A stretch of 64,000 nucleotides of DNA from Patescibacteria group bacterium. GTDB taxonomy: Bacteria; Patescibacteriota; Patescibacteriia; Magasanikbacterales; GWA2-37-8. The stretch's first letter is position 1. The number at the start of each line of letters is the position of its first letter. The position numbers and the translations under genes were made by a program. The stretch is taken from assembly GCA_022710645.1 (NCBI GenBank), contig JAKLGL010000001.1:100152-164151 (forward strand). Direction: 5' to 3'. Shown in pieces: positions 652-64,000 of this stretch. A model generated the notes under the pieces. The model searched no databases, was not told where the DNA came from, and worked only from the letters and a program-made list of their open reading frames with translations.

Positions 652-678
652 AAAATCCGCCTTACAGCGGATTTTTTG
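651..678. terminator. Bidirectional intrinsic terminator between convergent recR and the nucleotidyltransferase gene
   Basis: aaaaATCCGCcttacaGCGGATtttttt: a stem flanked by an A-run and a T-run. Confidence 0.6.
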
Positions 679-700
679 TCATTCTGAGTGTTAACGAAGA

Positions 701-722
701 ACCTGCCTGCCGGCAGGCAGGT
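701..722. repeat. Perfect 22-bp palindrome ACCTGCCTGCCGGCAGGCAGGT
   Basis: Read directly from the sequence. It is GC-rich, lies in the convergent intergenic region, and is a second hairpin after the terminator. Confidence 0.7.
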
Positions 723-797
723 CTGTAACAAGCAAAGACTTTAATTCAAAATTTTCCTTACTTACAGATCCTTCACTATGTTCAGGATGACAACCAA

Positions 798-1892: not shown

Positions 1893-1894
1893 AC

Positions 1895-3827: not shown

Positions 3828-3830
3828 ATT

Positions 3831-4874
3831 TTATTTCCACCATTTTCTTAAATCTTTTGAAGAGGTCTTTCTTATTTTTTTGATTTCTTTTCTTTTGTTT
3901 CTTAAATCTTTTCTCATTAACCAAACATCTCCCAAACCTTTCAGAATTTTCAAATCAAAGATGGCAAAATAAACCAACTTCTTCAATTCATACCACGCAA
4001 TAAAAATAAAATCAAGCCAAAAATTTTTACTATCTTCATTTTTATATAAAGTCATCAAATGATTGCGGTAGCTGTAATATTTCACCCACGGACTGTGTTT
4101 TTTCTTATTTTGCATTGCCGCCCAATCGTTTTTTTCTTTCGGACCGGCTCCGGCTCTGTCGTGGTAAGCAACGATATTTAACATTACAAAAGAGGAATAT
4201 CCGGCAAGGCGTAAACGCCAAGCCAAATCTACATCTTCTTTGTAGGAATGATAGCTTTCATCAAGCACCTGTCCATTACTGAATAAAACATTTTTTATAG
4301 CTTCGCGACGATACATTGGAAAAGCTCCGGACACACCAAATACTTCCAAAACATTATTATTGCCAAAATTGCTTTTTATCTCTTCCCAATTTTCTCCCGT
4401 ATATTGTTCTATTACGCGACGATTACGAAAAACTTTCAATCCCAGTGCATCCACCATAGAGGAAAAAGTCGCTTGTAAACCTTTTTCCATTTCACAAAAA
4501 TTCCAACGCATTAATCGCGGAGAAACTCCGGCTACGGTAGAATTTTTATCCAAAAAATCAACCATCTTTTCTAAAACTGTATTTTCTAAATACATATCTT
4601 GGTTGAGAAGTAAAAAATATTCGGTTTCATTTTCTCTAAACAAGATATTATGTCCTTTGGCAAAACCATGGTTTTCTTTCTCTTTAAAAAACTTTACCGG
4701 CACGGGAAAATTTGTAATTTCTTTTTCAATAACTTCCACGGTGTTATCGGTAGAATTATTATCCAAAATTTGCAATTCCCAATCAAAAAAAGTTTGTTTA
4801 CGCAGTGAATCAAAAAGATAAGGCAGATATTTCGCCCCGTTCCAAGTAACCAAATTGACAGCAAGTTTACTCAT
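3831..4874 (-). CDS. Glycosyltransferase family 2
   Basis: VNLVTWNGAKYLPYLFDSLRKQTF.DWELQILDNNSTDNT. Confidence 0.8.
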   Translation of the reverse strand: MSKLAVNLVTWNGAKYLPYLFDSLRKQTFFDWELQILDNNSTDNTVEVIEKEITNFPVPVKFFKEKENHGFAKGHNILFRENETEYFLLLNQDMYLENTVLEKMVDFLDKNSTVAGVSPRLMRWNFCEMEKGLQATFSSMVDALGLKVFRNRRVIEQYTGENWEEIKSNFGNNNVLEVFGVSGAFPMYRREAIKNVLFSNGQVLDESYHSYKEDVDLAWRLRLAGYSSFVMLNIVAYHDRAGAGPKEKNDWAAMQNKKKHSPWVKYYSYRNHLMTLYKNEDSKNFWLDFIFIAWYELKKLVYFAIFDLKILKGLGDVWLMRKDLRNKRKEIKKIRKTSSKDLRKWWK

Positions 4875-4875
4875 A

Positions 4876-5754
4876 CTATAAATACGGTTTTATCTTTTCT
4901 TTTTCTTTCTTTTTCAAAACAATTTTCAACCAAACCAAAAATATGGCTACTGGCCTAAAAATTGCAATCCAAATCCATTTATACCAGGGCTCCCATTTTT
5001 GAAAATACTTTAACATACTGGCGGTAAAAATTTTCTGCTTCCACAAATTATTTTGCTGTTTAAAACTTTGCCCGACCAGATCCACACAAGAAGCTGCCGG
5101 GGTATAAAAAATCTTCAAACCCATTTTTTTTATTTCCCGGCACAAATCAATATCTTCAAACCAAATAAAATAACGAGGATCAAAACCCCACCCCAATTTA
5201 TCCAAAGTGGTTTTGCGCAACAACATAAAAGCGCCACGAACCGTTTCCACCTCTTGTTCAACTTCCGGATTAAAATCTTTCATTAAATATTTATCCAAAA
5301 CTTTCGGAAATAAGTGTGGAATTTTGAGTAACAAAGCTAGTTGATCCATTAACCCCGGATAACGTCTGGGTTTGGCCCCTTCGTTAAAAAGGCCATCTTG
5401 AGTGGTCAGTTTGCAACTCAATAACCCAATATCACGGCGCTGATCCATCATTTCACAGAGCTTTAACAAAGAACCCGGTTCCACTTCATTGTCCGGATTC
5501 AAAAACAAAACATAACCGCCGGTGGCGATTTGATAGCCTTGATTATTAGCCGCGCTAAAACCTAAATTTTCTTTATTTAAAATCAATTTAACTTGCGGAT
5601 ATTTTTTGACAATTTCTATCGTATTATCCGTCGAACCGTTATCTACTATAATTTGTTCCGATTCCAAATCCACTGCGCCTTTTTGAACGCTTTCTATCTG
5701 TTTTACAATTGAAGATGCATTATTCCAAGTAACTGTGATTACAGAAATTTTCAT
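4876..5754 (-). CDS. Glycosyltransferase family 2
   Basis: ISVITVTWNNASSIVKQIESVQKG...IIVDNGSTDNT. Confidence 0.8.
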   Translation of the reverse strand: MKISVITVTWNNASSIVKQIESVQKGAVDLESEQIIVDNGSTDNTIEIVKKYPQVKLILNKENLGFSAANNQGYQIATGGYVLFLNPDNEVEPGSLLKLCEMMDQRRDIGLLSCKLTTQDGLFNEGAKPRRYPGLMDQLALLLKIPHLFPKVLDKYLMKDFNPEVEQEVETVRGAFMLLRKTTLDKLGWGFDPRYFIWFEDIDLCREIKKMGLKIFYTPAASCVDLVGQSFKQQNNLWKQKIFTASMLKYFQKWEPWYKWIWIAIFRPVAIFLVWLKIVLKKKEKEKIKPYL

Positions 5755-7435: not shown

Positions 7436-7464
7436 AGAGTAGCACATTTTGACGATTTTGTCAA
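7436..7464 (-). promoter_or_regulatory. Family promoter module, copy a (TTGACA-17-TACTCT)
   Basis: Minus strand reads TTGACAAAATCGTCAAAATGTGCTACTCT. The -35 and spacer are identical to copies e and f; the -10 is degenerate here. Confidence 0.65.
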
Positions 7465-7508: not shown

Positions 7509-8363
7509 TTATTTCAAATATTCTCTCAAGGCTTCTTGCCAACTTCTCTGTGGCGACATTTTTGTATTCAAAAGCTCCGAATAAACCGGTCTTTTGGCTG
7601 GACGAGGAAATTTATCTCCACTTACAGGTGTAGTATCAATTTGTATATTTTTAATTTTAAAAGTTTCTAACGCTAATTCATACCAACTACAAACTCCGGT
7701 ATTGGCACCGTGATAAATGCCGTAAGATTTATTTTCTTCCAATAATTTTCGGGTAAAGATTGCTAAATCCGGGGCATAGGTCGGACAACTGATTTCCTCA
7801 TCCACCAAATCCAAGTGTGTTTTTCCACCTTCAGTTGCGAGCCAAATCATCATATCAACAAAACTTTTTTTGGCCCCTTCCGCAATTGCCGGCTTACCAA
7901 ATAATTTGGATAAACGGATTAAATAATATTTTTCTCCCTGTTCTTTCAATAATTTTTCTCCCACCGCTTTTGTTTCTCCGTATTTATCAACCGGATTTAA
8001 TTCACTATTTTCATCATAACCTTCTTTTTTATCTCCATAAAAAACATAGTCAGAAGAATAATGAACAAAAACTATATTTTGTTCTTTGCAAATTTTAGCC
8101 ATTTCCCCTACTGCTTCACTATTGATTTTTCGCGCCAATTCAAAAATCGTAGAATCTTCTTCTATTTTATCAACCGCATTTATGGCCGTAGCATTGATCA
8201 AAACATCCGGTTTTAATCCTTTTATTTTATCACTTAGCATTTCTAAATTTCCTACGTCAATATCTTCTTTATCCCAAAGTACGGTTTCATAACCGTGATT
8301 TTTAAACTCTTCCGTCAAAGCTTGACCGAGCATTCCTTTGTAACCCAAAATCAAAACTTTCAT
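7509..8363 (-). CDS. rmlD: dTDP-4-dehydrorhamnose reductase
   Basis: MKVLILGYKGMLGQALTEEF... Rossmann N-terminus, about 284 aa of RmlD architecture, within a dTDP-sugar cluster. Confidence 0.85.
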   Translation of the reverse strand: MKVLILGYKGMLGQALTEEFKNHGYETVLWDKEDIDVGNLEMLSDKIKGLKPDVLINATAINAVDKIEEDSTIFELARKINSEAVGEMAKICKEQNIVFVHYSSDYVFYGDKKEGYDENSELNPVDKYGETKAVGEKLLKEQGEKYYLIRLSKLFGKPAIAEGAKKSFVDMMIWLATEGGKTHLDLVDEEISCPTYAPDLAIFTRKLLEENKSYGIYHGANTGVCSWYELALETFKIKNIQIDTTPVSGDKFPRPAKRPVYSELLNTKMSPQRSWQEALREYLK

Positions 8364-14158: not shown

Positions 14159-14605
14159 CTACGCTTTAATTGATAAAAAACCGTAAATAGTGAAAATCGG
14201 TAGAGCCAACCAAAATAAAAATAAACAAAAACAAATAATTATCCAAATAAATAAAGCTAAAAATCTCACAATCGTTTGAAGAAGACGCATAAAAAAACTG
14301 ATAATTCTGCCTTCCCAGTCATATTGTCCATACATGGGAACAAAAATATTCCTCAACCATAAACCCGGAGCCAGATAATCATTTCCTGTCGACATTTTTT
14401 CAAAACACCACAACCAAGAACGAAAAGCGCCTCGGGTATACCACCACAAAGGGAAATATAAAAAATCCAAAAATGTTTCCGCTAACAGTCTTGGTAAAAC
14501 CAAAATAAACATAGATTTAAAAAAATTAAGCCGAACTTTTATCGACTTATATTTTACCATAAAAACAAAGAAACCGCCAAACTCTTTGGCGGTCTTGAAA
14601 AACAA
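14159..14605 (-). CDS. Hypothetical membrane protein
   Basis: 148 aa, hydrophobic and Trp-rich. Confidence 0.45.
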   Translation of the reverse strand: MFFKTAKEFGGFFVFMVKYKSIKVRLNFFKSMFILVLPRLLAETFLDFLYFPLWWYTRGAFRSWLWCFEKMSTGNDYLAPGLWLRNIFVPMYGQYDWEGRIISFFMRLLQTIVRFLALFIWIIICFCLFLFWLALPIFTIYGFLSIKA

Positions 14606-14611
14606 AAGATT

Positions 14612-14995
14612 TTAACGAGAATTTACTGCTACGGACGTGACCGGAATGGCTAAATATTTCAATCGAGGAGTATTTACCATAGACAAACTTTCAACCCTGC
14701 TCTTTAACGAAGCCAAAGAATTCACCTCAGCTATTTGAGCTTCTATTTTTTGTTGTTCAAAACTGATTTCTTCTATGTTTCTTTCCAATTTTTTCAATTC
14801 ATAACCGGTACCGGAAGCGGCGGCAATTTGCAAAACAAAAGCTACAACAAGTATTAAGTTAACCGCCACCAAACACAAACGACCACGAACACCGAATAAC
14901 CAACCCGGCATACGTAGAAAAAAAACGGTTGATTCTCGGATTTCGTTAAGAAAATAATTTGTTTTGTTTTTAAAACCGACAATTTTATCGATCAT
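14612..14995 (-). CDS. ftsL: Cell division protein FtsL-like (single TM plus coiled coil)
   Basis: Immediately downstream of rsmH with a 4-nt overlap. One TM helix followed by a heptad-like segment (ELKKLERNIEEISFEQQKIEAQIAEVNSLASL). Confidence 0.55.
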   Translation of the reverse strand: MIDKIVGFKNKTNYFLNEIRESTVFFLRMPGWLFGVRGRLCLVAVNLILVVAFVLQIAAASGTGYELKKLERNIEEISFEQQKIEAQIAEVNSLASLKSRVESLSMVNTPRLKYLAIPVTSVAVNSR

Positions 14996-15915
14996 ATTTT
15001 TTCAATTACGCGCAATTTCGCGCTACGCGCTCTGGGGTTGATTTTGATTTCCTCCTCGGAAGCGCTAATGGGTTTTTTAGTGATTATTTTCGATTTGGCA
15101 TAAGGCAAACTCTGAAAAAATTGTTTGACTATCCTATCTTCCAAAGAATGAAAACTGATTACCGCCAGCCTTCCTCCTTTGTTCAATAATTCAAAAGCTA
15201 AAGGTAAGGTATTTTTCAAAATTTCCAATTCATTATTTACAGCAATCCGCAAGGCCTGAAAAACTTTGGTAGCCGGATGTATCCCGCCGATCCAAGGAAT
15301 TTCTTTATCAGTACGCAATTTTTTTCTATAAACTTTCAAGATTACTTCTGTCAATTCGCGGCTAGTTGCAATACGCTTGATTTTTCTTTCGGACAAAATT
15401 TCTTCGGCGATTTCTCTACTCAATTCTTCTTCGCCATAATTTTTAAAAATCCAAATCAAGTCTTCTAAACTGTATTCATTGATTATAAGTGAGGCGTCGA
15501 CACAATTTTCACTGCCAAAAACTTGACACCTGTTGTCATAACGCATATTTAGCGGTTCATCTTTATCAAAGCTAAAACCTCGGCTACGTTCGGCAAATTG
15601 CGGACTACTCCAACCGAGATCAAACAAAATGGCATCAACCGAAACAAAATCGTTTTCTTTGGCAATGTTTTCCAAATTGGAGAAATTTTCTCTGGCAAAT
15701 ACTATCTGGTCTTCAAAACGATATAAAAACCTTTTGGCACGTAAAATGGATTCCGGATCAGCATCAAGCCCGAGCAATTTTCCGCGCAAACCAATATGTT
15801 CCAAAATAGCTTCACTGTGTCCGCCATCTCCCAAAGTACAATCAATAACTTTAGCGCCTTTTTTCAAATTTAAATTTTCAATAACTTCGTTTAATAAAAC
15901 CGGAGTATGTCGCAT
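14992..15915 (-). CDS. rsmH: 16S rRNA (cytosine1402-N4)-methyltransferase RsmH/MraW
   Basis: MRHTPVLLNEV..DCTLGDGGHS..GLDADPE. Canonical mraZ-rsmH order. Confidence 0.9.
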   Translation of the reverse strand: MRHTPVLLNEVIENLNLKKGAKVIDCTLGDGGHSEAILEHIGLRGKLLGLDADPESILRAKRFLYRFEDQIVFARENFSNLENIAKENDFVSVDAILFDLGWSSPQFAERSRGFSFDKDEPLNMRYDNRCQVFGSENCVDASLIINEYSLEDLIWIFKNYGEEELSREIAEEILSERKIKRIATSRELTEVILKVYRKKLRTDKEIPWIGGIHPATKVFQALRIAVNNELEILKNTLPLAFELLNKGGRLAVISFHSLEDRIVKQFFQSLPYAKSKIITKKPISASEEEIKINPRARSAKLRVIEKI

Positions 15916-15916
15916 A

Positions 15917-16348
15917 TTAAACTCCTAAATCATTTAATTTTTCCGCTATTTCGTTGCTTTCTCTTTCAGTTTTGACTTTATAAGCATTCCAAGCATCCGC
16001 ATCCCAAATTTCAGCTCGATTATACAAACCGGCGATTATTAAACTTTTTTTCAAACCGGCAAAATTTCTCAAATACTCAGGGATAACCACGCGACCCTGT
16101 TTATCTATTTCAGCTTCAAAAGCCCCGGATAACATATGTCGAGCGAACGCACGGCTATTGGCTTGAGAAAATGGCAATGTCGCCAACTTTTCTGCCAGTT
16201 TATTCCATTCGTTTTTGGTATACAAAAACAAACAGTTATCCAAACCTTTGGTAATAACCGCTCCCTCCTCAAGTTCGCGTCGAAATTTTATCGGGATAGC
16301 TAAACGAAACTTGTCGTCTAAATTGTGGTTGTATTCGCCTACCATCAT
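15917..16348 (-). CDS. mraZ: Transcriptional regulator MraZ
   Basis: Two DxxxR SpoVT/AbrB-like halves (NLDDKFRLAIPIKFRREL and EIDKQGRVVIPEYLR). Confidence 0.9.
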   Translation of the reverse strand: MMVGEYNHNLDDKFRLAIPIKFRRELEEGAVITKGLDNCLFLYTKNEWNKLAEKLATLPFSQANSRAFARHMLSGAFEAEIDKQGRVVIPEYLRNFAGLKKSLIIAGLYNRAEIWDADAWNAYKVKTERESNEIAEKLNDLGV

Positions 16349-17202: not shown

Positions 17203-17231
17203 ATTATAGCACATTTTAACACTTTTGTCAA
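17203..17231 (-). promoter_or_regulatory. Family promoter module, copy b (perfect TTGACA-17-TGcTATAAT)
   Basis: Minus strand reads TTGACAAAAGTGTTAAAATGTGCTATAAT. Confidence 0.75.
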
Positions 17232-26112: not shown

Positions 26113-26141
26113 ATTATAGCACATTTTGGCACTTTTGTCAA
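26113..26141 (-). promoter_or_regulatory. Family promoter module, copy c (perfect TTGACA-17-TGcTATAAT, plus extended upstream block)
   Basis: Minus strand reads TTGACAAAAGTGCCAAAATGTGCTATAAT. A further ~45 nt upstream (26142-26190: CCCTCCTTCG...GGGCAAGGTAGTC) is shared with copy f. Confidence 0.75.
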
Positions 26142-55598: not shown

Positions 55599-57098
55599 TT
55601 AAAATAATTTTTTCCAAATTTTTGGAGTATAATTTGTGTCTTTGAGATAAACATTCATCAAAATACCGGCCATCAACCAAAAATAAAACATTAACGCGCG
55701 AAATTCAAAATAAGGACCGAAAAATCCGATCACGACTATGGCCGGAGAAAGCGCGCAAAAACCCAAACCGAGAGTTTGCGCGAAACCGTCGGAACCTCTT
55801 TTGTACAAAATATATCCCGCTCTGAAAATAACAATAAAAAAAGCCAACCAACAAATCAAACCCAGAGTCCCGGATTCTCCCCAAATACTGAACCAACTAT
55901 TGTCTATCTGCCCATAAATATTGGAAATACCAAAAGGCAAACTTAAACGATCGTAAAAATTATAATTCAACATAGCCGAAGCCACACCGCCGCCGTAATT
56001 CCCGAGACCGACACCAAACAAAGGATAATTTGCCACCACTTTCAGCGGAGTATTGATGATAAAAAATATACGACCGTATCCTTCGTAACTGTTTTGCCAA
56101 CTGCGCCAAGAAAAAGCTTCAAATACTCTTTCTTGAAAAGACATATTGGTTTTTTCCGTAATCTGAAAAGCGTTTTCCGTAATCGCGATAAAACCGAAAA
56201 AATAAATTATTACCATGACAAAAGAAGCCGCAAAAAAAGACCAGATACGACGATCTTTGACTACCAAAACTCCGGCGACAAAAATCCCGGCTGCCGCTCC
56301 TATCCAACTGGCGCGAGAAGAAGTCAAAAGTAAACCCACGCCGGCGGTAATCATAAAAAAATAATACCAAAAATCCCGATTAATATTTTTCAATTTATAA
56401 ATCAGAGGAAAAGTCATCGCCAAACCGAAAGCCAAAAAACTTCCCAGACGATCATAACGTCCCATAGTGGCAAAAACGCGTTTACCCGGAGCCCAAAATT
56501 GTTCTATTTCTCCGAGCATCGCTCCTCCGCCAAGATTAACCGATTGTGAAAAAAACAGATATTTATCCAAAAATCCGCCGGAAAGATATTGTATGACTCC
56601 GAGCAAGGCTTCCAAAAATACCATAGCCATAACAAGACGAAATATTTTTTTCATCGTAGCGCGATCGAAATTCTCAAACAACACCAAATAATAAACGGCT
56701 ACGAAACGTAAAACTTGACGCAATCCCAAAACAAAAATCAAAGGTCTGTATTGGTTAATAAAAAAAGATATTAACGTGATGACCAAAAATAAACCGAGCC
56801 AAATATTAAGCGGATTGGCCGGAAACAATTTTTTTTCTTTGAAAAAATAACGAACCCAACTCAGAAAAAAAGCCAAATATAAAACAACTTCGGGAAAATA
56901 TTTTACAAGAGAATAATAATTTATAGGAGTAAATCGCAGCACTACGCTTTCAAAAGGAAACCATAAAAGTAAAATTACCAACAAATATTCCATTTTCTCG
57001 GCGCGTAACAATAAAACCACAGCCAAGATCAAAATCAGACCGGCTAAAAACATACTGAAAAAATTGGCTGGCAAATATGCCAAAATCAAACTCATCAT
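55599..57098 (-). CDS. O-antigen ligase/polymerase-like polytopic membrane protein
   Basis: About 12 TM helices with a Wzy_C-like periplasmic loop region; 499 aa. Confidence 0.55.
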   Translation of the reverse strand: MMSLILAYLPANFFSMFLAGLILILAVVLLLRAEKMEYLLVILLLWFPFESVVLRFTPINYYSLVKYFPEVVLYLAFFLSWVRYFFKEKKLFPANPLNIWLGLFLVITLISFFINQYRPLIFVLGLRQVLRFVAVYYLVLFENFDRATMKKIFRLVMAMVFLEALLGVIQYLSGGFLDKYLFFSQSVNLGGGAMLGEIEQFWAPGKRVFATMGRYDRLGSFLAFGLAMTFPLIYKLKNINRDFWYYFFMITAGVGLLLTSSRASWIGAAAGIFVAGVLVVKDRRIWSFFAASFVMVIIYFFGFIAITENAFQITEKTNMSFQERVFEAFSWRSWQNSYEGYGRIFFIINTPLKVVANYPLFGVGLGNYGGGVASAMLNYNFYDRLSLPFGISNIYGQIDNSWFSIWGESGTLGLICWLAFFIVIFRAGYILYKRGSDGFAQTLGLGFCALSPAIVVIGFFGPYFEFRALMFYFWLMAGILMNVYLKDTNYTPKIWKKLF

Positions 57099-57253: not shown

Positions 57254-58429
57254 TTAGTTGACGCATGATACGAGGTTGTGATCAACACACCGCACGTTCT
57301 CAACGTGTTTGCCGGCAGTCGAACCTTCGCCCTTGGCGTTCATCGGCAATGATGAAGTAATGGAACAGAACCCGATACTACGGTACCAGATTGTCATGCC
57401 GGTAGAATTGAAATAATCAAAACCGCGGTTATTCTGTCCGGCATTCCATCCTTCGATGTAATTGCCAGGAACAAGCTCGGTCAAGATCACTTTGTCCTTG
57501 CAGGACTCCGAAGTTATCGGATTCTGAATCGTCGGCACAACATCAATGTCAGTGTCGGGAGTTTCGTCGACATCCGCAAGGACATCGTCTTCACTCTCCA
57601 CCACCGAATCATTGTCGGACTCACTGATTTCATCAGTATCCGAAGCTTCATCAACTTCTTCAGCTGAATCGCTATCAGGAGTTTCATCAACAACCGGATT
57701 GTCGTTGATTTCGACATTGTCTACATCCGACGCTTCATCCACAACTACATCTTCATCATTGACCACATCTTGCGCGATCAAGCTAACGAAAATTTCTCCA
57801 TTTTCCTCGTCGAATGTGTATCCATCGCCAGGTAGAAGTGTGACAACAAGTGTCTTATCCTGCGACAGCATCTGAAGAACTTCGAATGTCAGAGGTACGG
57901 CGCTGACACCTTTGGGAATAACGAACTTATTCTGGCCACACGTCTCCGGCATGCTATTGATGGCATAATCGATTCCGAGATAAGCACCAGCTAACTTGTA
58001 AGATACACAGATGTCATTTTCCGATTTGCCGGAAATAACGCTAAAAAAGACGGAAATAAATTGATCACGCTTGGCCGAGGTCGGTTCGCCGAAGGCTAAT
58101 TCGATCTCGGGTAAGATCTCGTCGGCATCGGAAACCAGTTCATCATTCACGATATCATCAGTCACCTTTTCTTCGTCAACGAATATTTCATCGTTGATTT
58201 CGGAATCGGTTTCTGCTTCGTTTATGAGCAACTCATCACTGTCGTTTTCAGATTCATCAGTCACGACATTACTGTCATTTTCCGATTCATCAGTGAGTTC
58301 CTCATCAACGATACTGTTGTTGTCTCCCTTTTCCTCGACAGAGGAATTGGTTGACGCCAACGGAACGCAAGAAACGGCAAGCATGGAAACCATCGCGAAA
58401 ACGATCGCGAAAATAAAACCTTTTTTCAT
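57254..58429 (-). CDS. Acidic Calx-beta-like lipoprotein with a Cys-containing C-terminal domain (cassette d)
   Basis: RBS GGAGG and an ATG at 58429 (MKKGF...). Lipobox AVSC. Asp/Glu/Ser/Val low-complexity arms flank a Calx-beta-like core (...DYAINS...KFVIPKGVSAVPLTFEVL...TLLPGDGY). C-terminus has 5 Cys. GC-rich codons. Confidence 0.7.
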   Translation of the reverse strand: MKKGFIFAIVFAMVSMLAVSCVPLASTNSSVEEKGDNNSIVDEELTDESENDSNVVTDESENDSDELLINEAETDSEINDEIFVDEEKVTDDIVNDELVSDADEILPEIELAFGEPTSAKRDQFISVFFSVISGKSENDICVSYKLAGAYLGIDYAINSMPETCGQNKFVIPKGVSAVPLTFEVLQMLSQDKTLVVTLLPGDGYTFDEENGEIFVSLIAQDVVNDEDVVVDEASDVDNVEINDNPVVDETPDSDSAEEVDEASDTDEISESDNDSVVESEDDVLADVDETPDTDIDVVPTIQNPITSESCKDKVILTELVPGNYIEGWNAGQNNRGFDYFNSTGMTIWYRSIGFCSITSSLPMNAKGEGSTAGKHVENVRCVDHNLVSCVN

Positions 58430-58631
58430 GGTAGCCTCCAATGAAAAGTTATTGTTGGACTCTTTCTCTAAGTTTTAAGGAACTTTGGGATTATTACTCC
58501 CAGCTAAATTTTCAATTTCTTGAAAATCTACCTACGGGCAATAAAAAACTCTCTTTGAAATAAGAGAGTGCGGAAATTCGCTGTTTTTACCAATCCGCGC
58601 TCTCTCCAACGCTTTTTGATTTTAACGTGAT

Positions 58632-58660
58632 ATTATAGCACATTTTGGCACTTTTGTCAA
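58632..58660 (-). promoter_or_regulatory. Family promoter module, copy d (perfect TTGACA-17-TGcTATAAT)
   Basis: Minus strand reads TTGACAAAAGTGCCAAAATGTGCTATAAT. Confidence 0.75.
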
Positions 58661-58669
58661 TACCTTAAC

Positions 58670-58687
58670 TTGGCTAATATTAGCCAA
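58670..58687. promoter_or_regulatory. Perfect 18-bp palindrome TTGGCTAATATTAGCCAA, 10 nt upstream of the -35 of copy d
   Basis: Read directly from the sequence. Confidence 0.45.
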
Positions 58688-58734
58688 ATTTACTTTAGCT
58701 TATTTTAGCCAAAATAGCTAAAATTAAACAAAAA

Positions 58735-58754
58735 GGCGGCCCTGAAGGGCCGCC
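58735..58754 (-). terminator. Intrinsic terminator of cassette e
   Basis: Minus strand: GGCGGCCCttcaGGGCCGCCtttttgttt. Confidence 0.65.
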
Positions 58755-58775
58755 GGTTAAAGGTTTAGAAAGTTA

Positions 58776-61622
58776 TTAAAGTCCATCGTGAGTGCAAGTA
58801 TTCACATCGGGGTGGTAGAACCCCACACCCGTACAGACCGGGATAGTCTGCTGGACTGCGCTGGCATTGAAACACTGTGCACTGCACCAACCAGTACTTA
58901 CGAAAAACGCACTGGCCGCACCCTGGAAATTCTGCGGGTTTCCAAGGTGATCATAGAAGACACAGTGGTCGGCGCTTGATGATGTTTTGATGGTGAAGGA
59001 ATTACATACCGACGAGCTCGGTCCCTGGGGCGTATAAACGACCCTTTCGGAACACGAGTAAACGGTAGAGGTAATACTGTCGGGCAAACCATCCTGATTA
59101 GCATCGGGACCGCTCTCGATCCTTTTGCCACCGTGCTGACAATTTGCTCCGACCGGCTCATCAGTGATACGAACAGCTGTGGAAACTCCATCAGCTCCAT
59201 CGCTTCCATCCGTTCCATTAGTGCCATCCGTACCATCTTCACCGTCCTCACCGGGCACACCATTGCAGACATACTTGGTATTGAGAACTTCGACTGCATC
59301 AAGCGTGCCATTGCTGTTGAGGTCAAGGCCGGTTTCGATTTTCTGACCACTGTACTGACAGTTGAGACCAGCGGGTTCAAAGACCACATTCACGAGTGAA
59401 TTAAGGCCATTGGCGCCGTTTGTCCCATTCGTACCATTGGTGCCATCCGTGCCATCTTCTCCGTCTTCACCGTTGCAGACATAGGCAGTGGAATTTTCTT
59501 CACCAAGGTTCAGGATGTTGTCATCGTTGTAATCAACACCTGTCCTGGTACGCTGTCCACCGTTGCCATAAGCATCACAGTTTGTGCCGACCAGAATGTC
59601 GACTACCGTCAAACTGTTATGCCCATTAGCACCGTTTGTTCCATTGGTTCCGTCAGTTCCGTCCGCACCATTGCAGACGTAGGAAATGAACTGAACTTCT
59701 CCGGGGTTAAAATTCCCCGAATCATTCAGATCTATTCCCGCTCTGATACGAGTACCGCCGTTGCCATAAGCATCACAGTTGGTGCCAACCAGAGTGTCGA
59801 CTACTGTCAAGCTGTTATGCCCGTTAGCGCCGTCAATACCATCCGTACCATCGGTACCGTTAGTTCCATCGCTTCCATCAGTTCCATTTACGCCGTCGAT
59901 CCCAGGAGCACCGTCCGCACCGTTACAAAGGTAAACAGTGGAAGTTATCTCCGAATCTTCGAGCGTATTGGAATCATCCAGGTCAAGCCCGGAACGGAAA
60001 CGCAAACCGCCGTTGCCGAAGGTGTCACAGTTGGTGCCGACAGTTGAGTCCTGGATTGTCAGTGAGTTATGACCGTTCGTGCCATTGGTTCCGTTGGTAC
60101 CGTTTGTACCGTCAGTTCCATCTGTGCCGTCCGTGCCATCTTCTCCATCTTCACCATCTTCACCGGGAGCGCCGTCACAAACATAAGTTGTCGCGCTCAC
60201 TTCTCCAGCATCCAGAACACCGTTATCATCCAGGTCAAGCCCGGAACGGATCCTTTGGCCGGTACCGTTGAGGGCATCACAATTGACACCTACGACATTA
60301 TCATAGGCAGTCAGCGAATTGTGACCATTGGTTCCGTTGGTGCCGTTTGTACCGTCAGTTCCATCTGTGCCGTCCGTGCCATCTTCTCCGTCTTCCCCGT
60401 TACAAGAATACCCGACAGAAGTCACTTCAGTAGCATCGAGAATATTATCGTCGTTGATATCCACACCTGCGCGTGTGCGCTGTCCGCCATTAGCGCAGTT
60501 GGTTCCGACAACATCGTCAATAACTACCAGACCATTATGGCCGTTAGCACCATCTGCACCGTCAGTTCCATTGGTACCATCGGTACCGTTAGTTCCGTCA
60601 ATACCGTCCAGGCCATCAGCGCCGTTGCAAAGAAATTGGGTGGAGTCTATTTCACCCAATTCAAGCACATTATTGCGCGCCGTACTGCCGAGACCATCGC
60701 CGTTATCAAGTCCGGAACGGATCCTGATTCCGCCATTGCCATAAGCATCGCAATTGACACCTACGACATTGTCGTAAACAGTCAGAGGATTAAATCCGTC
60801 AGCACCGTCTTTGCCGTTACAGTTATAGGAAACTGAATCGACTTCGACCGCATCAAGCGTATTATCTCCGTCATCATCGACACCTACTCTGGTGCGCTGT
60901 CCACCGTTGCCGTATGCATCGCAATGAGTCCCTACGACATCATCTACGAGAACGAGACTGTTGTGACCATCCGCACCATCTGCGCCATTGCAGATGTATT
61001 TGGTGGAATCTACTTCCACCGCATCAAGCGTACCGTCAGCATCGTCATCAAGACCGGAACGGATTCGGAGTCCGCCATTGCCATACTTGTCACAGTTGGC
61101 TCCGACAACATCGTCGGTAATGGTCAAACTGTTCTTTCCGTTCGTACCGTCTTCACCATCTTGGCCATCCTCACCGTCCTGACCGTCTTCACCATCACAG
61201 ACATAATCCGTTTTGGTGACTTCATCGGAATCAAGGACATCATTGTTGTTCAGGTCAATGCCTGACTCAACTTTTTTCCCGCCGTTTGTGCAGTTGGTAC
61301 CTTTGGGTTCGTCAGTGATGTTAACCAGCGATTTACTGCCGGCTTCACCGTCGTCACCCTTTTCACCGTTGCAAACGAACTCGGTGGACTTGATCTCATT
61401 CTTGTCGAGCTTGCCGTCATCATCGACATCAACACCCGACTCCACTTTCTTGCCGCCGAACTCGCAATTGTCGCCTTCGGGTTCATCGCTGACGAGAACG
61501 AGCGAATCGTGCCCGTCATCACCCTTGGCGGTACTGTTGTCTTCAGCCATCGGAAGGGAACATCCGGCCGTGAACATGGCGAAAACTATCGCCACCACGA
61601 AAACGGTGTTAAAATACTTCTT
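58776..61622 (-). CDS. Giant repetitive lipoprotein: about 14 Cys-pair/DxDxDG calcium-binding-like units separated by collagen-like Gly-X-Y tracts, with a Cys-rich C-terminal domain (cassette e)
   Basis: RBS GGAGGA and an ATG at 61622 (MKKYF...). Lipobox FTAGC. Unit pattern: HNSLT..D..VG.NCD.YGNGG.R.R.G.D..DD..LD..EV.S..Y.CNG.DG.DG, then (GTD/GTN) 3-10 times. C-terminus has about 10 Cys. Confidence 0.8.
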   Translation of the reverse strand, partial: KKYFNTVFVVAIVFAMFTAGCSLPMAEDNSTAKGDDGHDSLVLVSDEPEGDNCEFGGKKVESGVDVDDDGKLDKNEIKSTEFVCNGEKGDDGEAGSKSLVNITDEPKGTNCTNGGKKVESGIDLNNNDVLDSDEVTKTDYVCDGEDGQDGEDGQDGEDGTNGKNSLTITDDVVGANCDKYGNGGLRIRSGLDDDADGTLDAVEVDSTKYICNGADGADGHNSLVLVDDVVGTHCDAYGNGGQRTRVGVDDDGDNTLDAVEVDSVSYNCNGKDGADGFNPLTVYDNVVGVNCDAYGNGGIRIRSGLDNGDGLGSTARNNVLELGEIDSTQFLCNGADGLDGIDGTNGTDGTNGTDGADGANGHNGLVVIDDVVGTNCANGGQRTRAGVDINDDNILDATEVTSVGYSCNGEDGEDGTDGTDGTDGTNGTNGTNGHNSLTAYDNVVGVNCDALNGTGQRIRSGLDLDDNGVLDAGEVSATTYVCDGAPGEDGEDGEDGTDGTDGTDGTNGTNGTNGTNGHNSLTIQDSTVGTNCDTFGNGGLRFRSGLDLDDSNTLEDSEITSTVYLCNGADGAPGIDGVNGTDGSDGTNGTDGTDGIDGANGHNSLTVVDTLVGTNCDAYGNGGTRIRAGIDLNDSGNFNPGEVQFISYVCNGADGTDGTNGTNGANGHNSLTVVDILVGTNCDAYGNGGQRTRTGVDYNDDNILNLGEENSTAYVCNGEDGEDGTDGTNGTNGTNGANGLNSLVNVVFEPAGLNCQYSGQKIETGLDLNSNGTLDAVEVLNTKYVCNGVPGEDGEDGTDGTNGTDGSDGADGVSTAVRITDEPVGANCQHGGKRIESGPDANQDGLPDSITSTVYSCSERVVYTPQGPSSSVCNSFTIKTSSSADHCVFYDHLGNPQNFQGAASAFFVSTGWCSAQCFNASAVQQTIPVCTGVGFYHPDVNTCTHDGL
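60084..60147. repeat. Intragenic near-identical 64-bp repeat, copy 1
   Basis: cattggttccgttggtaccgtttgtaccgtcagttccatctgtgccgtccgtgccatcttctcc. Confidence 0.8.
60326..60389. repeat. Intragenic near-identical 64-bp repeat, copy 2 (one mismatch versus copy 1)
   Basis: cattggttccgttggtgccgtttgtaccgtcagttccatctgtgccgtccgtgccatcttctcc. Confidence 0.8.
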
Positions 61623-61809
61623 CATCACATCCTCCACGCGACATCAGTCGCTTAAGCAGTTATTAATTCCCGAAATACCAAAAATATATTTTTCTAAACC
61701 TTATATTTTCAAAGAACTTTTGCTCTCCTTTAGTTCAAAATCAAGACAAATAAAAAATCGGCTCTCTCCTTGATTTTGAGCTAAAAAAGAACATAAAATT
61801 TAACATAGT

Positions 61810-61838
61810 AAAATAACACATTTTGACGATTTTGTCAA
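61810..61838 (-). promoter_or_regulatory. Family promoter module, copy e (TTGACA-17-TGtTATTTT)
   Basis: Minus strand reads TTGACAAAATCGTCAAAATGTGTTATTTT. Confidence 0.6.
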
Positions 61839-61894
61839 GGGTATTTAGGCACATATAAACATAGTACTTATTTATCTAAAATAAAATAAAAAAA

Positions 61895-61914
61895 GGCGGC
61901 CCCGAAGAGCCGCC
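61895..61914 (-). terminator. Intrinsic terminator of cassette f
   Basis: Minus strand: GGCGGCtcttcgggGCCGCCtttttttatttt. Confidence 0.65.
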
Positions 61915-61971
61915 GATAATATATATCAAAACGAAAATTTTTCCTTGTTTTACGCCCAGGTTAGGCGCATG

Positions 61972-63276
61972 CTATTGGCATTTGTTGGAGTTGTCTCCGT
62001 TCCATATAGCCAAGATACTGCATCCCAGCTTCTGGAACCAGTTGGTATTATTGCCGATGCCGGTGTGTTTTCCGCCAGCTTCAAATTGCGCCGAAGGATT
62101 ACCGTTGGCATCATAGCACATAACTGAGCACCAACCGGAGATCATGAACTTGGTGTAGCCATCGATATTATTCTCGATGATCCTTGTTCCTCCACCTTGT
62201 CCTTCACCCCAGCCAACACAGCTCTTTATTGTCGTGGTCGGCTTTACCCACCAGTCAGTACAGTAGTTGGTCGGACCTGAAGCGGTCTGAACCTCTTTTT
62301 CTGTACCACCATCATCGTCTTTGACGGTCAGGTTGAACTCTTTGTTCGAACCTATCGTGGTATATCCTGTAGGAGTTCTGAGTTTGAAATTGACCTTGAG
62401 CTCCGGCTGTGAAATATTGTCATTGTTTACCTTAACGGTAAATGTTTTGACGCTTTCACCATGCAGAAACTCTACTTCCTTTCCATTGAGATAATCGCCG
62501 GAAGGGTTGAAGGTCAAGCGAGAAAGATCTCCTGTCGCGACCACAGTCACTGCAACTTTGTCGGTCGAAACCGAACGCTTGACAGTAACAGTTGCCGTAT
62601 CCGAGGAGCTATTTTCCGTAATCGTTGCCGACACGGATTCAAAGTTGAACTCCCCGTTGAAGGTTCCGTCATCTTCCAGGATGGTGACGCGGGCTTCCTT
62701 GGTTTTGATCTCAAAATAATTACTCTGATCAATAGTTACCACGATCTCGCGGTTACCATTGTTCGTTTCATTGTTGATAGAGGTCAACTGGAACTTCGCC
62801 GATTTTTCGCCAGCGGAAATGTTCAGTTTATCTCCATTGAGACCTGACACCAGGTAATCCTTGTTGCGGATAGCATCACCGCTGAAACTAAGTGATGCGT
62901 AGATATCGTACTTTTCAGCGCGATTCAGCGTCACATAGATCTCGGCAATACCGCCGTTCTCGTTGATCTTTTCGGGAGCGGAAATGCTCGCCGTCAGATC
63001 TTCGTCGTCAGTATCAACATCCGAATCTGACGCAGTGTCAGTATCGACATTGTCGACATCATCTTCCGCAACATCCTCATCAACGGTTTCGTCCGCCTGA
63101 GTGTTGTCGTTGACGACATCGTCTTTCACGGTCTCGTCACTCACCGCGTCATCGTTGACGGGTTCATAGTCGTGACCATTGTTGTTGTTGAGCTCTTCGC
63201 CCGTTCCGGGTGTGACATAGCAACCTGCAAGAAACATCGTGGCAACCGCCACGAAAAAAACGCTAAGCTTCTTCAT
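61972..63276 (-). CDS. Calx-beta-domain lipoprotein with an acidic N-terminal arm and a Cys-rich C-terminal domain (cassette f)
   Basis: RBS GGAGGA and an ATG at 63276 (MKKLS...). Lipobox LAGC. Two Calx-beta-like modules (...YDIYASLSFSGDAIRNKDYL...VTILEDDG; ...VTVVATGDLSRLTFNPSGDYLNGKEVEFLHGESVKTFTV). C-terminus has 6 Cys. Confidence 0.7.
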   Translation of the reverse strand: MKKLSVFFVAVATMFLAGCYVTPGTGEELNNNNGHDYEPVNDDAVSDETVKDDVVNDNTQADETVDEDVAEDDVDNVDTDTASDSDVDTDDEDLTASISAPEKINENGGIAEIYVTLNRAEKYDIYASLSFSGDAIRNKDYLVSGLNGDKLNISAGEKSAKFQLTSINNETNNGNREIVVTIDQSNYFEIKTKEARVTILEDDGTFNGEFNFESVSATITENSSSDTATVTVKRSVSTDKVAVTVVATGDLSRLTFNPSGDYLNGKEVEFLHGESVKTFTVKVNNDNISQPELKVNFKLRTPTGYTTIGSNKEFNLTVKDDDGGTEKEVQTASGPTNYCTDWWVKPTTTIKSCVGWGEGQGGGTRIIENNIDGYTKFMISGWCSVMCYDANGNPSAQFEAGGKHTGIGNNTNWFQKLGCSILAIWNGDNSNKCQ

Positions 63277-63550
63277 GATGTCCTCCATCAGAAAAGTTAT
63301 TGTTGTACCTGTATATATTCTGAAACCTTATTTTCGTTGATATATTGTAAAGAACTAAATCTTTTCTATCTCCACCTGAAAAATCCGGTGGAAAATGAAA
63401 AAGATAAATATTTTCTATCATCCTGAATCCGAAGGGTGAAGGATCTGTAAATAAGGTAAATCTTTGTTTTAAGATTATTGCTTATTGCAGATTCTTCCCC
63501 GCCTAGGCGGGTCAGAATGACAATGTGATTATTGGTTATTTTGTTACATT

Positions 63551-63565
63551 TTGTTACTGTAACAA
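63551..63565. promoter_or_regulatory. Perfect palindrome TTGTTACTGTAACAA just downstream of the -10 of copy f
   Basis: Read directly; it overlaps the predicted transcription start region. Confidence 0.35.
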
Positions 63566-63571
63566 CGCTAT

Positions 63572-63600
63572 ATTATAGCACATTTTGACGATTTTGTCAA
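63572..63600 (-). promoter_or_regulatory. Family promoter module, copy f (perfect TTGACA-17-TGcTATAAT, plus extended upstream block shared with copy c)
   Basis: Minus strand reads TTGACAAAATCGTCAAAATGTGCTATAAT. Upstream CCCTCCTTCG...CGGGCAAGTAGTC (63601-63640) matches copy c. Confidence 0.75.
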
Positions 63601-63865
63601 CCCTCCTTCGCTAAAGCTACGGGCGGGCAAGTAGTCTTAATTTATCTAATCTTAGAGAAATTTTATCCGCAAAAAGTGACCTAAATCCCCTTTTGCGGAT
63701 GATTTCTCTTACAAAAAAACGCCAAAGGAGAGATTATGGCGATTTTTTGTCAGCGGATTTTCATCTGCCAACCTAAATTTCTCTCCGAAAATTCAAGTTG
63801 AAAGACCAATTTTAATTTACACTTCTCTGAACACTATTTGTATACGATAATGTTCAAGGAAATGT

Positions 63866-63887
63866 GGGGCGGATTTTAACCCGCCCC
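63866..63887 (-). terminator. GC-rich hairpin downstream of the partial gene at the window end
   Basis: GGGGCGGattttaaCCGCCCC. No clear T-run follows, so terminator function is uncertain. Confidence 0.35.
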
Positions 63888-63910
63888 GTGAAAGAAAGAG
63901 CTCTGCTGTG

Positions 63911-64000
63911 TTAAAGGGACGCACACCTGAACGGGTCGCAATCCCAAGCGCAGACCTGAGTAGTACCGTTTTCACCGCCGTTACAGGAGCCGCATTCAAC
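63911..64000 (-). CDS. 3' end of a further Cys-rich secreted-protein gene (partial, start beyond the window end)
   Basis: Minus-strand frame reads ...VECGSCNGGENGTTQVCAWDCDPFRCASL*. Six Cys in 29 residues, GC-rich codons, and a hairpin downstream, all matching the cassette lipoprotein C-termini. Confidence 0.45.
   Translation of the reverse strand, partial: VECGSCNGGENGTTQVCAWDCDPFRCASL

Follow-up and report, generated by a model that had tools for sequence, protein, structure and literature searches.

The gene at 58776..61625 on the minus strand of the window (the whole stretch of DNA analysed, 64,000 nucleotides) encodes a 949-aa protein which we interpret, with a probability of roughly 0.55, as a lipid-anchored, extracytoplasmic stalk of DUF7151 units, stiffened by Ca2+ and disulfides, evolvable in length, carrying a lineage-specific tip domain and resembling a fibrillar adhesin. 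By its Pfam assignment, the protein belongs to a catalogued, widespread and unstudied bacterial family, DUF7151 (PF23657). The unit array, its loops and a duplicated linker tract are not chance occurrences, because DUF7151 matches in 12 stretches (436.4 bits, cut-off 27.2, E=5.6e-134), the PROSITE (PS00018-type) EF-hand loop pattern is matched by 8 of the 12 units as against 0.03 in shuffles, and 20 of 22 codons are identical between the two copies of the tract where 8.6 would be expected. The original prediction described a lipoprotein anchor, a Cys pair in each unit, a loop resembling Ca2+-binding motifs, collagen-like linkers and a C-terminal domain containing Cys, and this architecture was recovered throughout. 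Its view that the unit is not a described domain family did not hold; the unit is PF23657, relatives are annotated at NCBI as 'DUF7151 family protein', and hundreds of proteins are built on this architecture.

Gene structure and predicted lipid anchor

A single ORF of 948 aa at 58776-61622 had been predicted; one long minus-strand ORF is indeed present, but the complete CDS (ORF, ATG and Pfam evidence) extends to 61625 and comprises 949 aa plus stop, since the earlier end omitted the Met. All coordinates below are likewise on the minus strand. Upstream lie a ribosome-binding site, GGAGG (61631..61635), 5 nt before the ATG in the upstream sequence, and a 29-nt promoter-like module, TTGACAAAATCGTCAAAATGTGTTATTTT (61810..61838), composed of a -35, a 17-nt spacer with TG and a -10, which has six copies within the window against 0 expected. 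An intrinsic-terminator-like hairpin, GGCGGCCCTTCAGGGCCGCC, with a T-run follows 22 nt past the stop codon (58735..58754). An exact-sequence look-up, which for that reason is blind to variants, recovered three contigs carrying the gene, all with an identical product, and placed the identical 949-aa product on JGI contig Ga0209310_1000202. As the promoter-like module, the ribosome-binding site and the strong terminator are all present and the product is identical on independent assemblies, the gene is, judged by these signals, real and separately expressed. A Wzy_C-type enzyme gene is syntenic with it, and long acidic stretches occur in both neighbouring lipoproteins as well.

The predicted lipoprotein start was substantiated. 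The N-terminus reads MKKYFNTVFVVAIVFAMFTAG followed by Cys22, which gives the signal peptide and lipobox of a bacterial lipoprotein (Lgt/LspA substrate); the signal peptide spans aa 1-22 (61560..61625) and ends, by sequence, in AMFTAG and Cys22, the predicted lipidation site. With no charged residue in the six positions before F-T-A-G-C, the lipobox fits the PROSITE PS51257-type rule. The Cys after the hydrophobic region is kept in the syntenic orthologues, and a lipobox-like Cys follows the signal peptide in 75 of 116 homologues (∼65%; among the best 120 of 818).

Twelve DUF7151 units and their predicted fold

The array consists of 12 two-Cys units of 47-59 aa, fewer and more variable than the 14 or so repeats of roughly 55 aa first proposed; the claim that each unit pairs two Cys with an acidic loop was borne out, as the ∼50-aa units each carry 2 Cys and a Dx[DN]x[DN]G loop. 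Units 1 (aa 39-87, 61365..61511, EF-hand-type loop DVDDDGKLDKNE) and 2 (aa 97-145, 61191..61337, loop DLNNNDVLDSDE, the best Pfam stretch) are of type A, as are units 11 (aa 741-789, 59259..59405, loop DLNSNGTLDAVE) and 12 (aa 814-860, 59046..59186), the latter having a degenerate loop without the position-12 Glu and being kept in all orthologues. The subtype with a three-residue D-A-Y-G-N-G-G insertion comprises units 3-10: unit 3 (type B with the DKYGNGG insertion, aa 163-214, 60984..61139, loop DDDADGTLDAVE), unit 4 (type B, aa 220-271, 60813..60968, loop DDDGDNTLDAVE), unit 5 (type B, aa 277-335, 60621..60797), whose loop is broken by a 7-residue insertion also found in orthologue P0001, unit 6 (aa 362-410, 60396..60542, loop DINDDNILDATE), unit 7 (aa 434-485, 60171..60326, loop DLDDNGVLDAGE), unit 8 (aa 518-569, 59919..60074, loop DLDDSNTLEDSE), and units 9 (aa 602-653, 59667..59822) and 10 (aa 668-719, 59469..59624) with the near-miss loops DLNDSGNFNPGE and DYNDDNILNLGE. 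Pairwise identity among the 12 unit-coding segments is 44-72% nt and 30-71% aa, which contradicts the suggestion that units outside the near-identical pair are highly similar in DNA; unit 10, for example, has unit 9 as its nearest DNA relative at 72%.

AlphaFold2 modelling of unit 11 (pLDDT 94.1; strands 3-10, 20-27 and 40-47) gives a three-stranded beta-meander as the predicted form of the DUF7151 unit, and the model had no fold match in the PDB. In an alignment of 123 units, including the 12 described here, C16, G20, G26, D28 and C47 are invariant, and L4, G13, G19, L35, E39 and G49 are conserved at ≥90%. Exactly 2 Cys occur in 501 of 501 homologous units, selected by a filter that demanded at least 2 Cys. 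From the topology of the unit model only, we infer the proximity of the two Cys and the geometry of the Ca2+ ligands.

The Ca2+-binding-like reading of the loop could be sharpened to a 12-residue EF-hand-type loop with a position-12 Glu, found in 8 of the 12 units and, by the PROSITE pattern, in 73% of the 501 homologous units. Loops are degenerate in 4 of the 12 units. Across the 501, loop position 3 is N/D in 97%, position 5 is N/D/S in 99%, position 6 is G in 78% and position 8 is L in 98%. In a profile search of PDB sequences with the unit, the sole matches were EF-hand loops (Ca-binding proteins, lanmodulin), aligned at profile positions 27-42. A helix-loop-helix EF-hand domain was considered and rejected, as strands 20-27 and 40-47 flank the modelled loop, in which the only helical element is a turn of 3 residues; at E<=0.1, Pfam EF-hand was not matched, and none of the thrombospondin type-3, Excalibur and dockerin families was reported for the protein. 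At least 12 structural contexts, unrelated to one another, are known in which a Dx[DN]xDG motif binds Ca2+ in a near-identical manner (PMC3123361). Taken as a full 12-residue EF-hand-type loop, the loop of the unit is probably Ca2+-binding.

An anchor-array-head family with variable C-terminal domains

We found 818 homologues, among them proteins from Ekhidna and Persicimonas and from MAGs labelled Myxococcota, Polyangiaceae, Nitrospirota and Alcanivorax, the nearest relative being 55% identical. The plan common to >800 proteins starts with a lipobox, continues with an array of DUF7151 units joined by short GXY linkers and ends in a C-terminal domain that varies. Among the best 120 of the 818, the number of units has a median of 8 (range 3-17), the first unit directly follows the signal peptide (median start at residue 40), and the C-terminal remainder is variable (median 253 aa) with RCC1, Ig-like, FG-GAP or other domains. 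On this domain evidence, the layout of DUF7151 proteins is one of anchor, array and head. Our search of the literature found no paper on the family, which has no assigned function. A match of the unit to a known family with known function had been named as grounds against the original prediction; the family was found and the known function was not, so that, DUF7151 being without known function, these grounds apply by half.

In the protein described here, the head would be the C-terminal six-Cys domain of 90 aa (aa 860-949, 58779..59048), predicted to be an all-beta sandwich. Beyond the last unit, the tail holds 6 Cys (at 874, 888, 914, 918, 931 and 944) where about 10 had been predicted. The AlphaFold2 model of this domain is all-beta with a pLDDT of 82. 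The domain is very rare, with 5 matches in 1.84 billion representatives. A recognisable binding fold was not found for the head, nor was a known adhesive domain found in the lipoprotein by Pfam search and fold search of the head.

Gly-X-Y tracts between the units

Runs of Gly-X-Y triplets of variable length had been noticed between the units, and they proved to be both variable and uninterrupted. The 11 tracts total 84 triplets; the predicted lower bound of 3 triplets stands, whereas the upper bound is 12 and not about 10. These tracts bear most directly on the alternative that the protein is a trimeric collagen-like fibre, a rather unlikely reading in our estimate, in which the tracts would form triple helices and the DUF7151 units three-fold nodes, like beads on a rope, as in BclA, Scl or phage tail fibres, and the C-terminal domain a trimerisation or receptor-binding knob. 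The register is unbroken in 11 of 11 linkers, beginning at the C-N-G Gly and ending at the G-H-N that precedes strand 1, and Pfam Collagen (PF01391) matches at 98.3 bits (cut-off 27.2), as expected of uninterrupted Gly-X-Y, both of which favour a trimer. Tracts reach 25 triplets in some homologues, and several known collagen-like proteins have their trimerisation nucleated by C-terminal globular domains. PHROG tail-fibre families with collagen-like repeats add to this, but they match only the low-complexity tracts, the repeat unit and the head having no PHROG match. The composition makes a triple helix less likely: Y is Asp or Asn in 76 of the 84 triplets and Pro occurs in just 3, and Pro-poor triplets with Asp or Asn at Y are poor triple-helix formers on host-guest propensity scales. 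Three such acidic strands would repel one another, and the tracts are short, two having only 3 triplets. Many homologues are nearly devoid of GXY between units (e.g., 4-12 triplets in total for 8-10 units), which indicates that collagen trimerisation is not intrinsic to the DUF7151 family. Membership of characterised collagen-like adhesin families was rejected, as the NCBIfam scores fall far under the cut-offs (SclB 88 vs 325, SclA 15 vs 400, Lcl 11 vs 500), and the unit is confidently modelled as a self-contained monomer.

Within the tracts, the near-identical pair of 64-bp segments reported earlier is real, although its coordinates were offset by 1 nt and 60084-60147 and 60327-60390 differ at 2 of 64 positions, not one. 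The pair belongs to a 71-nt stretch, of which copy 1 (60082..60152) lies in the 12-triplet tract between units 7 and 8 and encodes EDGEDGTDGTDGTDGTNGTNGTNG, and copy 2 (60325..60395) lies in the 9-triplet tract between units 6 and 7. The copies are identical at 69 of 71 nt (97%; P about 5e-7 for the codon identity given above), whereas the flanking units are only 53-59% identical. Imperfect tandem repeats of 9, 18 or 27 nt are found in every tract (69-95% matches). As judged by identity, the 71-nt stretch shows recent tract-to-tract copying or exchange, and slippage-prone DNA is, on the same basis, confined to the low-complexity tracts.

Orthologues and the evolution of length

Syntenic orthologues (55-70% identity) have 9 units (L006/P0001) and at least 16 units (L005) against 12 here. 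Both retain unit 1, the final two units and the head (69-83% identity), whereas the number of middle units and the length of every linker differ. The expectation that repeat number and tract length would change was thus realised between orthologues, and the recent tract copying described above lends it further support.

This pattern also bears on whether the protein is an anionic envelope or coat component and not a projecting adhesin, which we regard as improbable; its repeats would then multiply sites for divalent-cation binding or buffering or for the nucleation of surface minerals. In favour are the composition (166 Asp+Glu vs 42 Lys+Arg; net charge about -124), the EF-hand-type loops of the 12-unit array (8 of 12 exact) with a further 45 Asp in the tracts, the acidic regions of both adjacent lipoproteins and the head without a recognisable binding fold; such extreme acidity would be just as suitable for cation buffering or for a coat. 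The family, on the other hand, keeps its anchor-array-variable-head layout with interaction domains as heads (Ig-like, FG-GAP, RCC1 propellers), so a spacer fits better than a sponge. As the orthologues conserve the base unit and the tip and vary the middle, what changes is arguably distance and not the number of sites, and in tiny domains canonical EF-hand loops and disulfides typically serve as structural staples.

A contingency locus that switches rapidly, in line with the original prediction's emphasis on slippage or recombination in the intragenic repeats, would alter protein length within a population in a Periscope-like manner. It would account for the 97% identical tract copy between diverged units, the tandem repeats in every tract and the differences in unit number and linker length among orthologues, and an orthologue scaffold is broken within the repeat region. 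We nevertheless consider it very doubtful. Adjacent domains of Periscope proteins share 82-100% aa identity, a high identity of the DNA being named as the driver (PMC8201768); with units at the identities given above, a Periscope-type array of highly similar domains was rejected, and the unit-level recombination substrate that had been supposed is absent. Furthermore, the repeats within tracts are imperfect, the three contigs carry an identical product (in the look-up that is blind to variants), and no same-species length variant was recovered among the sequences searched. Highly speculative, lastly, is a Ca2+-dependent, Pro-free collagen-like trimeric fibre, in which Ca2+ would both offset the charge of the Asp-rich strands and fix the EF-hand nodes in place, serving as a length-tunable episymbiont-host tether via its six-Cys tip, perhaps with O-glycosylation of Thr-rich tracts by the Wzy_C-type enzyme.

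A model of the proposed stalk

In the preferred reading, that of a lipid-anchored DUF7151 stalk, the protein would be exported and then lipidated at Cys22, as the lipobox suggests. The chain would run through 12 mini-domains of ∼50 aa, each modelled as a three-stranded antiparallel beta-meander; by the strand order, such a meander should have its N- and C-termini at opposite ends, so that units add length in series. The C-terminal end of each unit would be stapled by the invariant Cys16-Cys47 pair, as a putative disulfide, and the N-terminal end by the 12-residue Dx[DN]x[DN]GxLDxxE loop that connects strands 2 and 3 and, by its motif, should bind one Ca2+. Pro-poor, Asp/Asn-rich (G-X-[D/N])n tracts of 3-12 triplets would act as extended, strongly acidic spacers, either as monomeric PPII-like segments or as trimeric collagen-like helices. 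At the membrane-distal tip, the array would display the lineage-restricted beta-sandwich with three predicted disulfides, the likely ligand-binding head, at an estimated full extension of ∼70-100 nm. Lipidation, disulfides, Ca2+ binding, surface exposure and rod-like rigidity are all predicted features of this model. Stalk length would evolve through gain or loss of middle (type B) units and through expansion, contraction or copying of triplet tracts, while the base unit, the final two units and the head stay conserved.

If the model is true, DUF7151 is a widespread and unstudied stalk module, a beta-meander of ∼50 residues with one disulfide and one EF-hand-type Ca2+ site, by which many environmental bacteria hold diverse head domains off the membrane. 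A domain of unknown function would thereby gain a concrete and testable function, the known Dx[DN]xDG calcium sites would be joined by one in a beta-strand context, and a candidate host-contact protein would be at hand in a CPR bacterium (NCBI label Candidatus Magasanikbacteria), a group with poorly known attachment machinery. For the gene itself, the result is mostly one of classification, as an 'unrecognised architecture' turned out to be an already catalogued family.

Comparison with known systems

Fibrillar adhesins (PMC8286594) combine an anchor, repeated stalk domains and a known adhesive domain; the protein described here has a predicted anchor and putative stalk repeats, and no known adhesive domain was found in it. 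Fibrillar adhesins and Periscope proteins (SasG, Rib, Sgo_0707; PMC8286594, PMC8201768) have an LPXTG anchor, whereas the anchor here is an N-terminal lipobox, which places the head at the C-terminus; the repeats are also far too diverged for the Periscope definition. With bacterial collagen-like surface proteins (Scl1/Scl2, BclA, Lcl) and phage collagen-like tail fibres, the protein shares uninterrupted GXY, variability in GXY length and a surface location, predicted in our case. Its tracts, in contrast, are short, numerous and Pro-poor, have Asp or Asn at Y, and are interrupted by folded domains every 3-12 triplets. The loop, a 12-residue D-x-[DN]-x-[DN]-G-x-L-D-x-x-E with a position-12 Glu, is like that of EF-hands and of the Dx[DN]xDG loops outside EF-hands (dockerin, Excalibur, thrombospondin type-3; Rigden et al., 2011, PMC3123361), and thrombospondin type-3 and Excalibur repeats, like the DUF7151 unit, combine a loop with a disulfide (a putative one here) in a very small extracellular repeat. 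The protein is set apart from the rest of the DUF7151 family by unusually long GXY tracts (up to 12 triplets, 84 in all), the D-A-Y-G-N-G-G insertion subtype and a C-terminal domain present in only a handful of sequences. With its PF23657 homologues, it shares the unit consensus sLv.vt.EpaGaNC..GG.kIe.GlD.n.nG.LDa.Ev..T.YVCNG, the lipobox start, short GXY linkers and a variable C-terminal domain.

Gene structure and expression signals

The DUF7151/collagen-like lipoprotein is encoded by a single ORF of 949 aa on the minus strand (58776..61625). In the original prediction (58776-61622), the upper end fell one codon after the ATG. GGAGG is present 5 nt upstream of the ATG, and both an extended -10 promoter module of sigma-70-like type upstream (61838-61810, minus) and a strong GC hairpin with a T-run after the stop (58754-58735, minus) are indicative that the gene is its own transcription unit. 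Plus-strand ORFs within the region (e.g., 60069..60836) were rejected as antisense read-through of the repeats. The protein begins, as expected by the original prediction, with a signal peptide and lipobox (MKKYFNTVFVVAIVFAMFTAG followed by C, the Cys being at position 22), and lipidation at this residue is predicted. An exact-sequence look-up, which recovers identical copies only, found the same 949-aa product on three contigs, one of them a JGI metagenome contig of 84 kb. The flanking proteins of the 563-kb NCBI contig (LepA, RecJ, and the upstream neighbour) carry the NCBI label 'Candidatus Magasanikbacteria bacterium'.

The 29-nt promoter module TTGACAAAA(T/G)(C/T)G(T/C)CAAAATGTG(C/T)TATAAT has six copies in the window against 0 expected, all on the minus strand (7436-7464, 17203-17231, 26113-26141, 58632-58660, 61810-61838, and 63572-63600), and its spacer is conserved along with its -35 and extended -10 elements. 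It stands before this gene, before the lipoprotein genes on either side, and before three unrelated genes (one just upstream of mraZ/rsmH); a strong house promoter and a site for a regulator are both conceivable. Nearly identical terminator hairpins follow the 438-aa lipoprotein gene (61895-61914, minus) and the DUF7151 gene (58735-58754, minus), reading GGCGGC(T/C)CTTC(G/A)GGGCCGCC and then a T-run. GC content is 0.45-0.48 at 58001-64000; elsewhere in the window it is mostly 0.34-0.40 and at most 0.43. The difference probably stems from the composition of the lipoprotein genes (Gly/Asp/Thr-rich and acidic) and not from foreign origin.

DUF7151 family membership

The repeat unit, at first not recognised as a described domain family, is Pfam PF23657 (DUF7151), found in 12 stretches with E=5.6e-134 and 436 bits (cut-off 27.2), and the linkers match Pfam Collagen at 98 bits; the architecture is thus already catalogued, though uncharacterised. 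HxsA4 was rejected as an identity, the match being compositional (NCBIfam 37.7 against a cut-off of 55). Full-text literature search found no paper on 'DUF7151', and nothing relevant was found on collagen-like proteins in Patescibacteria. Our database search gave 818 homologues, of which the named ones are mostly MAGs labelled Myxococcota, Polyangiaceae, Nitrospirota, or Alcanivorax, together with Ekhidna (Bacteroidota) and Persicimonas, and several are already named 'DUF7151 family protein'. Among the best 120 of the 818 homologues, a lipobox-like Cys follows the signal peptide in 75/116, the first unit begins at median residue 40, units number 3-17 per protein (median 8) with short Gly-X-Y linkers, and the C-terminal remainder varies, with a median of 253 aa, and holds domains such as RCC1 propellers, Ig-like, or FG-GAP. 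The protein adds one more member to a catalogued, unstudied family. The new points are modest: an EF-hand-type loop in a strand-loop-strand mini-domain without a PDB fold match, a rare C-terminal domain, and the CPR host label.

Repeat units and the calcium-type loop

We found 12 units of 47-59 aa with exactly two Cys in each, where about 14 had been proposed. Type A units (1, 2, 11, and 12) read ...EPxGxNCxxGGxKxExG... and type B units (3-10) read ...DxVVGxNCDAYGNGGxRxRxG..., most of the latter with a 3-residue insertion. The unit-coding segments are only 44-72% identical in nucleotides and 30-71% in amino acids, at odds with the high DNA similarity originally ascribed to them. The resemblance of the acidic loop to DxDxDG motifs goes further than first noted, as 8/12 units fit the full PROSITE EF-hand loop pattern (e.g., DLNSNGTLDAVEV) versus 0.03 in shuffles; the loops of the remaining four are near misses or interrupted by an insertion (unit 5). 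Across 501 units of the family the pattern fits 73%, with N/D at position 3 in 97%, N/D/S at position 5 in 99%, G at position 6 in 78%, and L at position 8 in 98%. An alignment of 123 units shows an invariant Asp at position 1, and Glu at position 12 is conserved at >=90%.

A search of all PDB sequences with the unit profile matched EF-hand loops only (Entamoeba CaBP, lanmodulin, and CDPKs, at profile positions 27-42) and found no solved DUF7151 structure. The monomer model is confident, and its strand order suggests that the unit is a beta-meander with N- and C-termini at opposite ends, of which the N-terminal end would carry the EF-hand-type loop (residues 28-39) and the C-terminal end the Cys16-Cys47 pair.

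Gly-X-Y linkers

Consecutive units are joined by 11 uninterrupted Gly-X-Y runs of 3, 3, 4, 6, 7, 8, 9, 9, 11, 12, and 12 triplets (84 in total), each running from the Gly of the unit-ending C-N-G to the G-H-N just before the next unit. The Y position is Asp/Asn in 76/84 triplets (59% across the linkers of the DUF7151 family), X is mostly Thr, Glu, or Ala, and Pro occurs in only 3 triplets. Such tracts bring to mind a trimeric collagen-like fibre, in which they would form triple helices. The linkers are, however, unlike those of the Scl, Bcl, and Lcl collagens, whose NCBIfam models are missed by a wide margin, and many family members have almost no Gly-X-Y between units. A phage origin or tail-fibre identity was rejected, as PHROG tail-fibre matches are confined to the Gly-X-Y tracts, with none for the unit or the C-terminal domain. 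Taken together with the Asp/Asn at Y and the scarce Pro, these observations favour extended acidic spacers over obligate triple helices, and we consider the trimeric fibre unlikely.

The C-terminal domain

The tail after unit 12, hereafter the head, is a 90-aa domain holding six Cys rather than the ten or so reported earlier. A word-indexed homologue search with this domain alone gave no candidate, and an exhaustive HMM profile search of 1.84 billion representative proteins gave only five matches, four of which are orthologue-like (P0125, P0011, P0126, and P0006). The only non-orthologous match, P0127 (1484 aa, outside the window), was hit in five stretches at profile positions 3-42 with E=1e-5. 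P0127 combines repeats of Ig-like look with leucine-rich-repeat-like segments and a C-terminus resembling transglutaminases, and its weak match is probably spurious, reflecting generic beta-strand repeats. Of the six Cys, P0006 is without both Cys 1 and Cys 3, and this joint absence hints at a C1-C3 disulfide in the head.

Orthologues and their differences in length

Synteny with the window is seen at two loci: L006, with the order orthologue (P0001), 397-aa acidic lipoprotein, and Wzy_C gene, and L005, with a seven-gene order identical to that of the JGI contig. Both retain the signal peptide, the ...CS(L/I/V)PMA... start, unit 1, the last two units, and the head, which is 83% identical to that of the window protein in P0001 and 69% in L005. 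The unit number is 9 in P0001, 12 in the window protein, and at least 16 (many diverged) in the L005 gene, and all linker lengths differ, the last linker, for instance, having 24, 9, and 12 residues in the three proteins. The change of repeat number that had been anticipated is therefore seen between orthologues: the protein evolves in length while its base and tip stay fixed. A 10-N gap inside the repeat array of the L005 ENA scaffold (7940-7949) splits the gene calls into 169-aa and 889-aa products, so that the database protein P0011 from this locus is N-terminally truncated; the gap illustrates how hard such genes are to assemble. Scans for same-species length variants gave only distant relatives in genome contigs and, among the matches listed, only other species in metagenomes.

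The near-identical 64-bp pair of the original prediction exists, at 60084-60147 and 60327-60390, with a one-base shift of the second copy and 2/64 differences instead of one. The full stretch (60082-60152 versus 60325-60395) is identical at 69/71 positions; its two copies lie in separate tracts and code for one and the same run of 24 residues. Its codons are identical at 20/22 positions, versus 8.6 expected given the codon usage within the tracts (P ~5e-7), which speaks for recent copying or gene conversion and not for convergence.

Neighbouring genes

In each of the two flanking lipoproteins (57254-58441 and 61972-63288, minus), the N-terminal region is long and rich in Asp/Glu, and the C-terminal domain contains Cys and a common G-W/F-C-S motif. 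The 438-aa one has six Cys with spacing much like that of the head; its NCBI name is 'GspH/FimT family', but Pfam GspH, at E=0.047, stays below cut-off. These C-terminal domains were not established as homologues of the head: the Cys spacing looks alike and BLAST gives E=0.005 in a tiny database, but hhalign gives only 28% probability over 17 columns around G-W-C-S, and they were absent from the results of the exhaustive search.

A Wzy_C (O-antigen ligase-like, PF04932) membrane protein is encoded at 55599-57098 (minus) in the window, at 3949-5460 in L006, and at 14528-16027 in locus L001. Its gene is the conserved direct downstream neighbour of the lipoprotein trio both in the window and in the orthologous L006; in the former it is followed by a radical-SAM gene and a GHL15/FG-GAP gene. 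Because protein O-oligosaccharyltransferases also have a Wzy_C domain, glycosylation of the Thr-rich tracts via this type of protein is conceivable. Upstream of the lipoprotein cluster, beyond the window's end, L001 encodes a Lys/Glu-rich protein of >1300 aa with a coiled-coil look (89-4006) and a 504-aa membrane-associated coiled-coil-like protein (4086-5600); neither has a Pfam match, and their order is kept in L005.

A proposed stalk of variable length and its comparison with known systems

We favour, with a probability of roughly 55%, a lipid-anchored stalk of evolutionarily tuned length. Anchored in the membrane by its lipid, the protein would consist of DUF7151 units, each stiffened by one disulfide and one Ca2+ and spaced apart by the acidic Gly-X-Y tracts, and would keep a lineage-specific head of beta-sandwich type at a distance of some tens of nanometres from the membrane; gain or loss of units and tracts would tune its length over evolutionary time. 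The gene with its signals, the family membership, the conserved motifs, the confident monomer model, the statistics on architecture, and the comparison of orthologues are direct results, and lipidation, the disulfide, Ca2+ binding, rigidity, and the role of the head are inferred from them. The protein is extremely acidic (166 D+E versus 42 K+R), and a cation-binding coat protein is a decidedly doubtful alternative reading. A fast-switching contingency locus is more improbable still, as the repeats of Periscope proteins have 82-100% identity as a criterion (PMC8201768), and the units here, at 30-71% amino acid identity, fall below it.

The unit is not an EF-hand domain, because strands and not helices flank its loop. 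It belongs instead with the Dx[DN]xDG sites, which recur in many unrelated contexts (PMC3123361).
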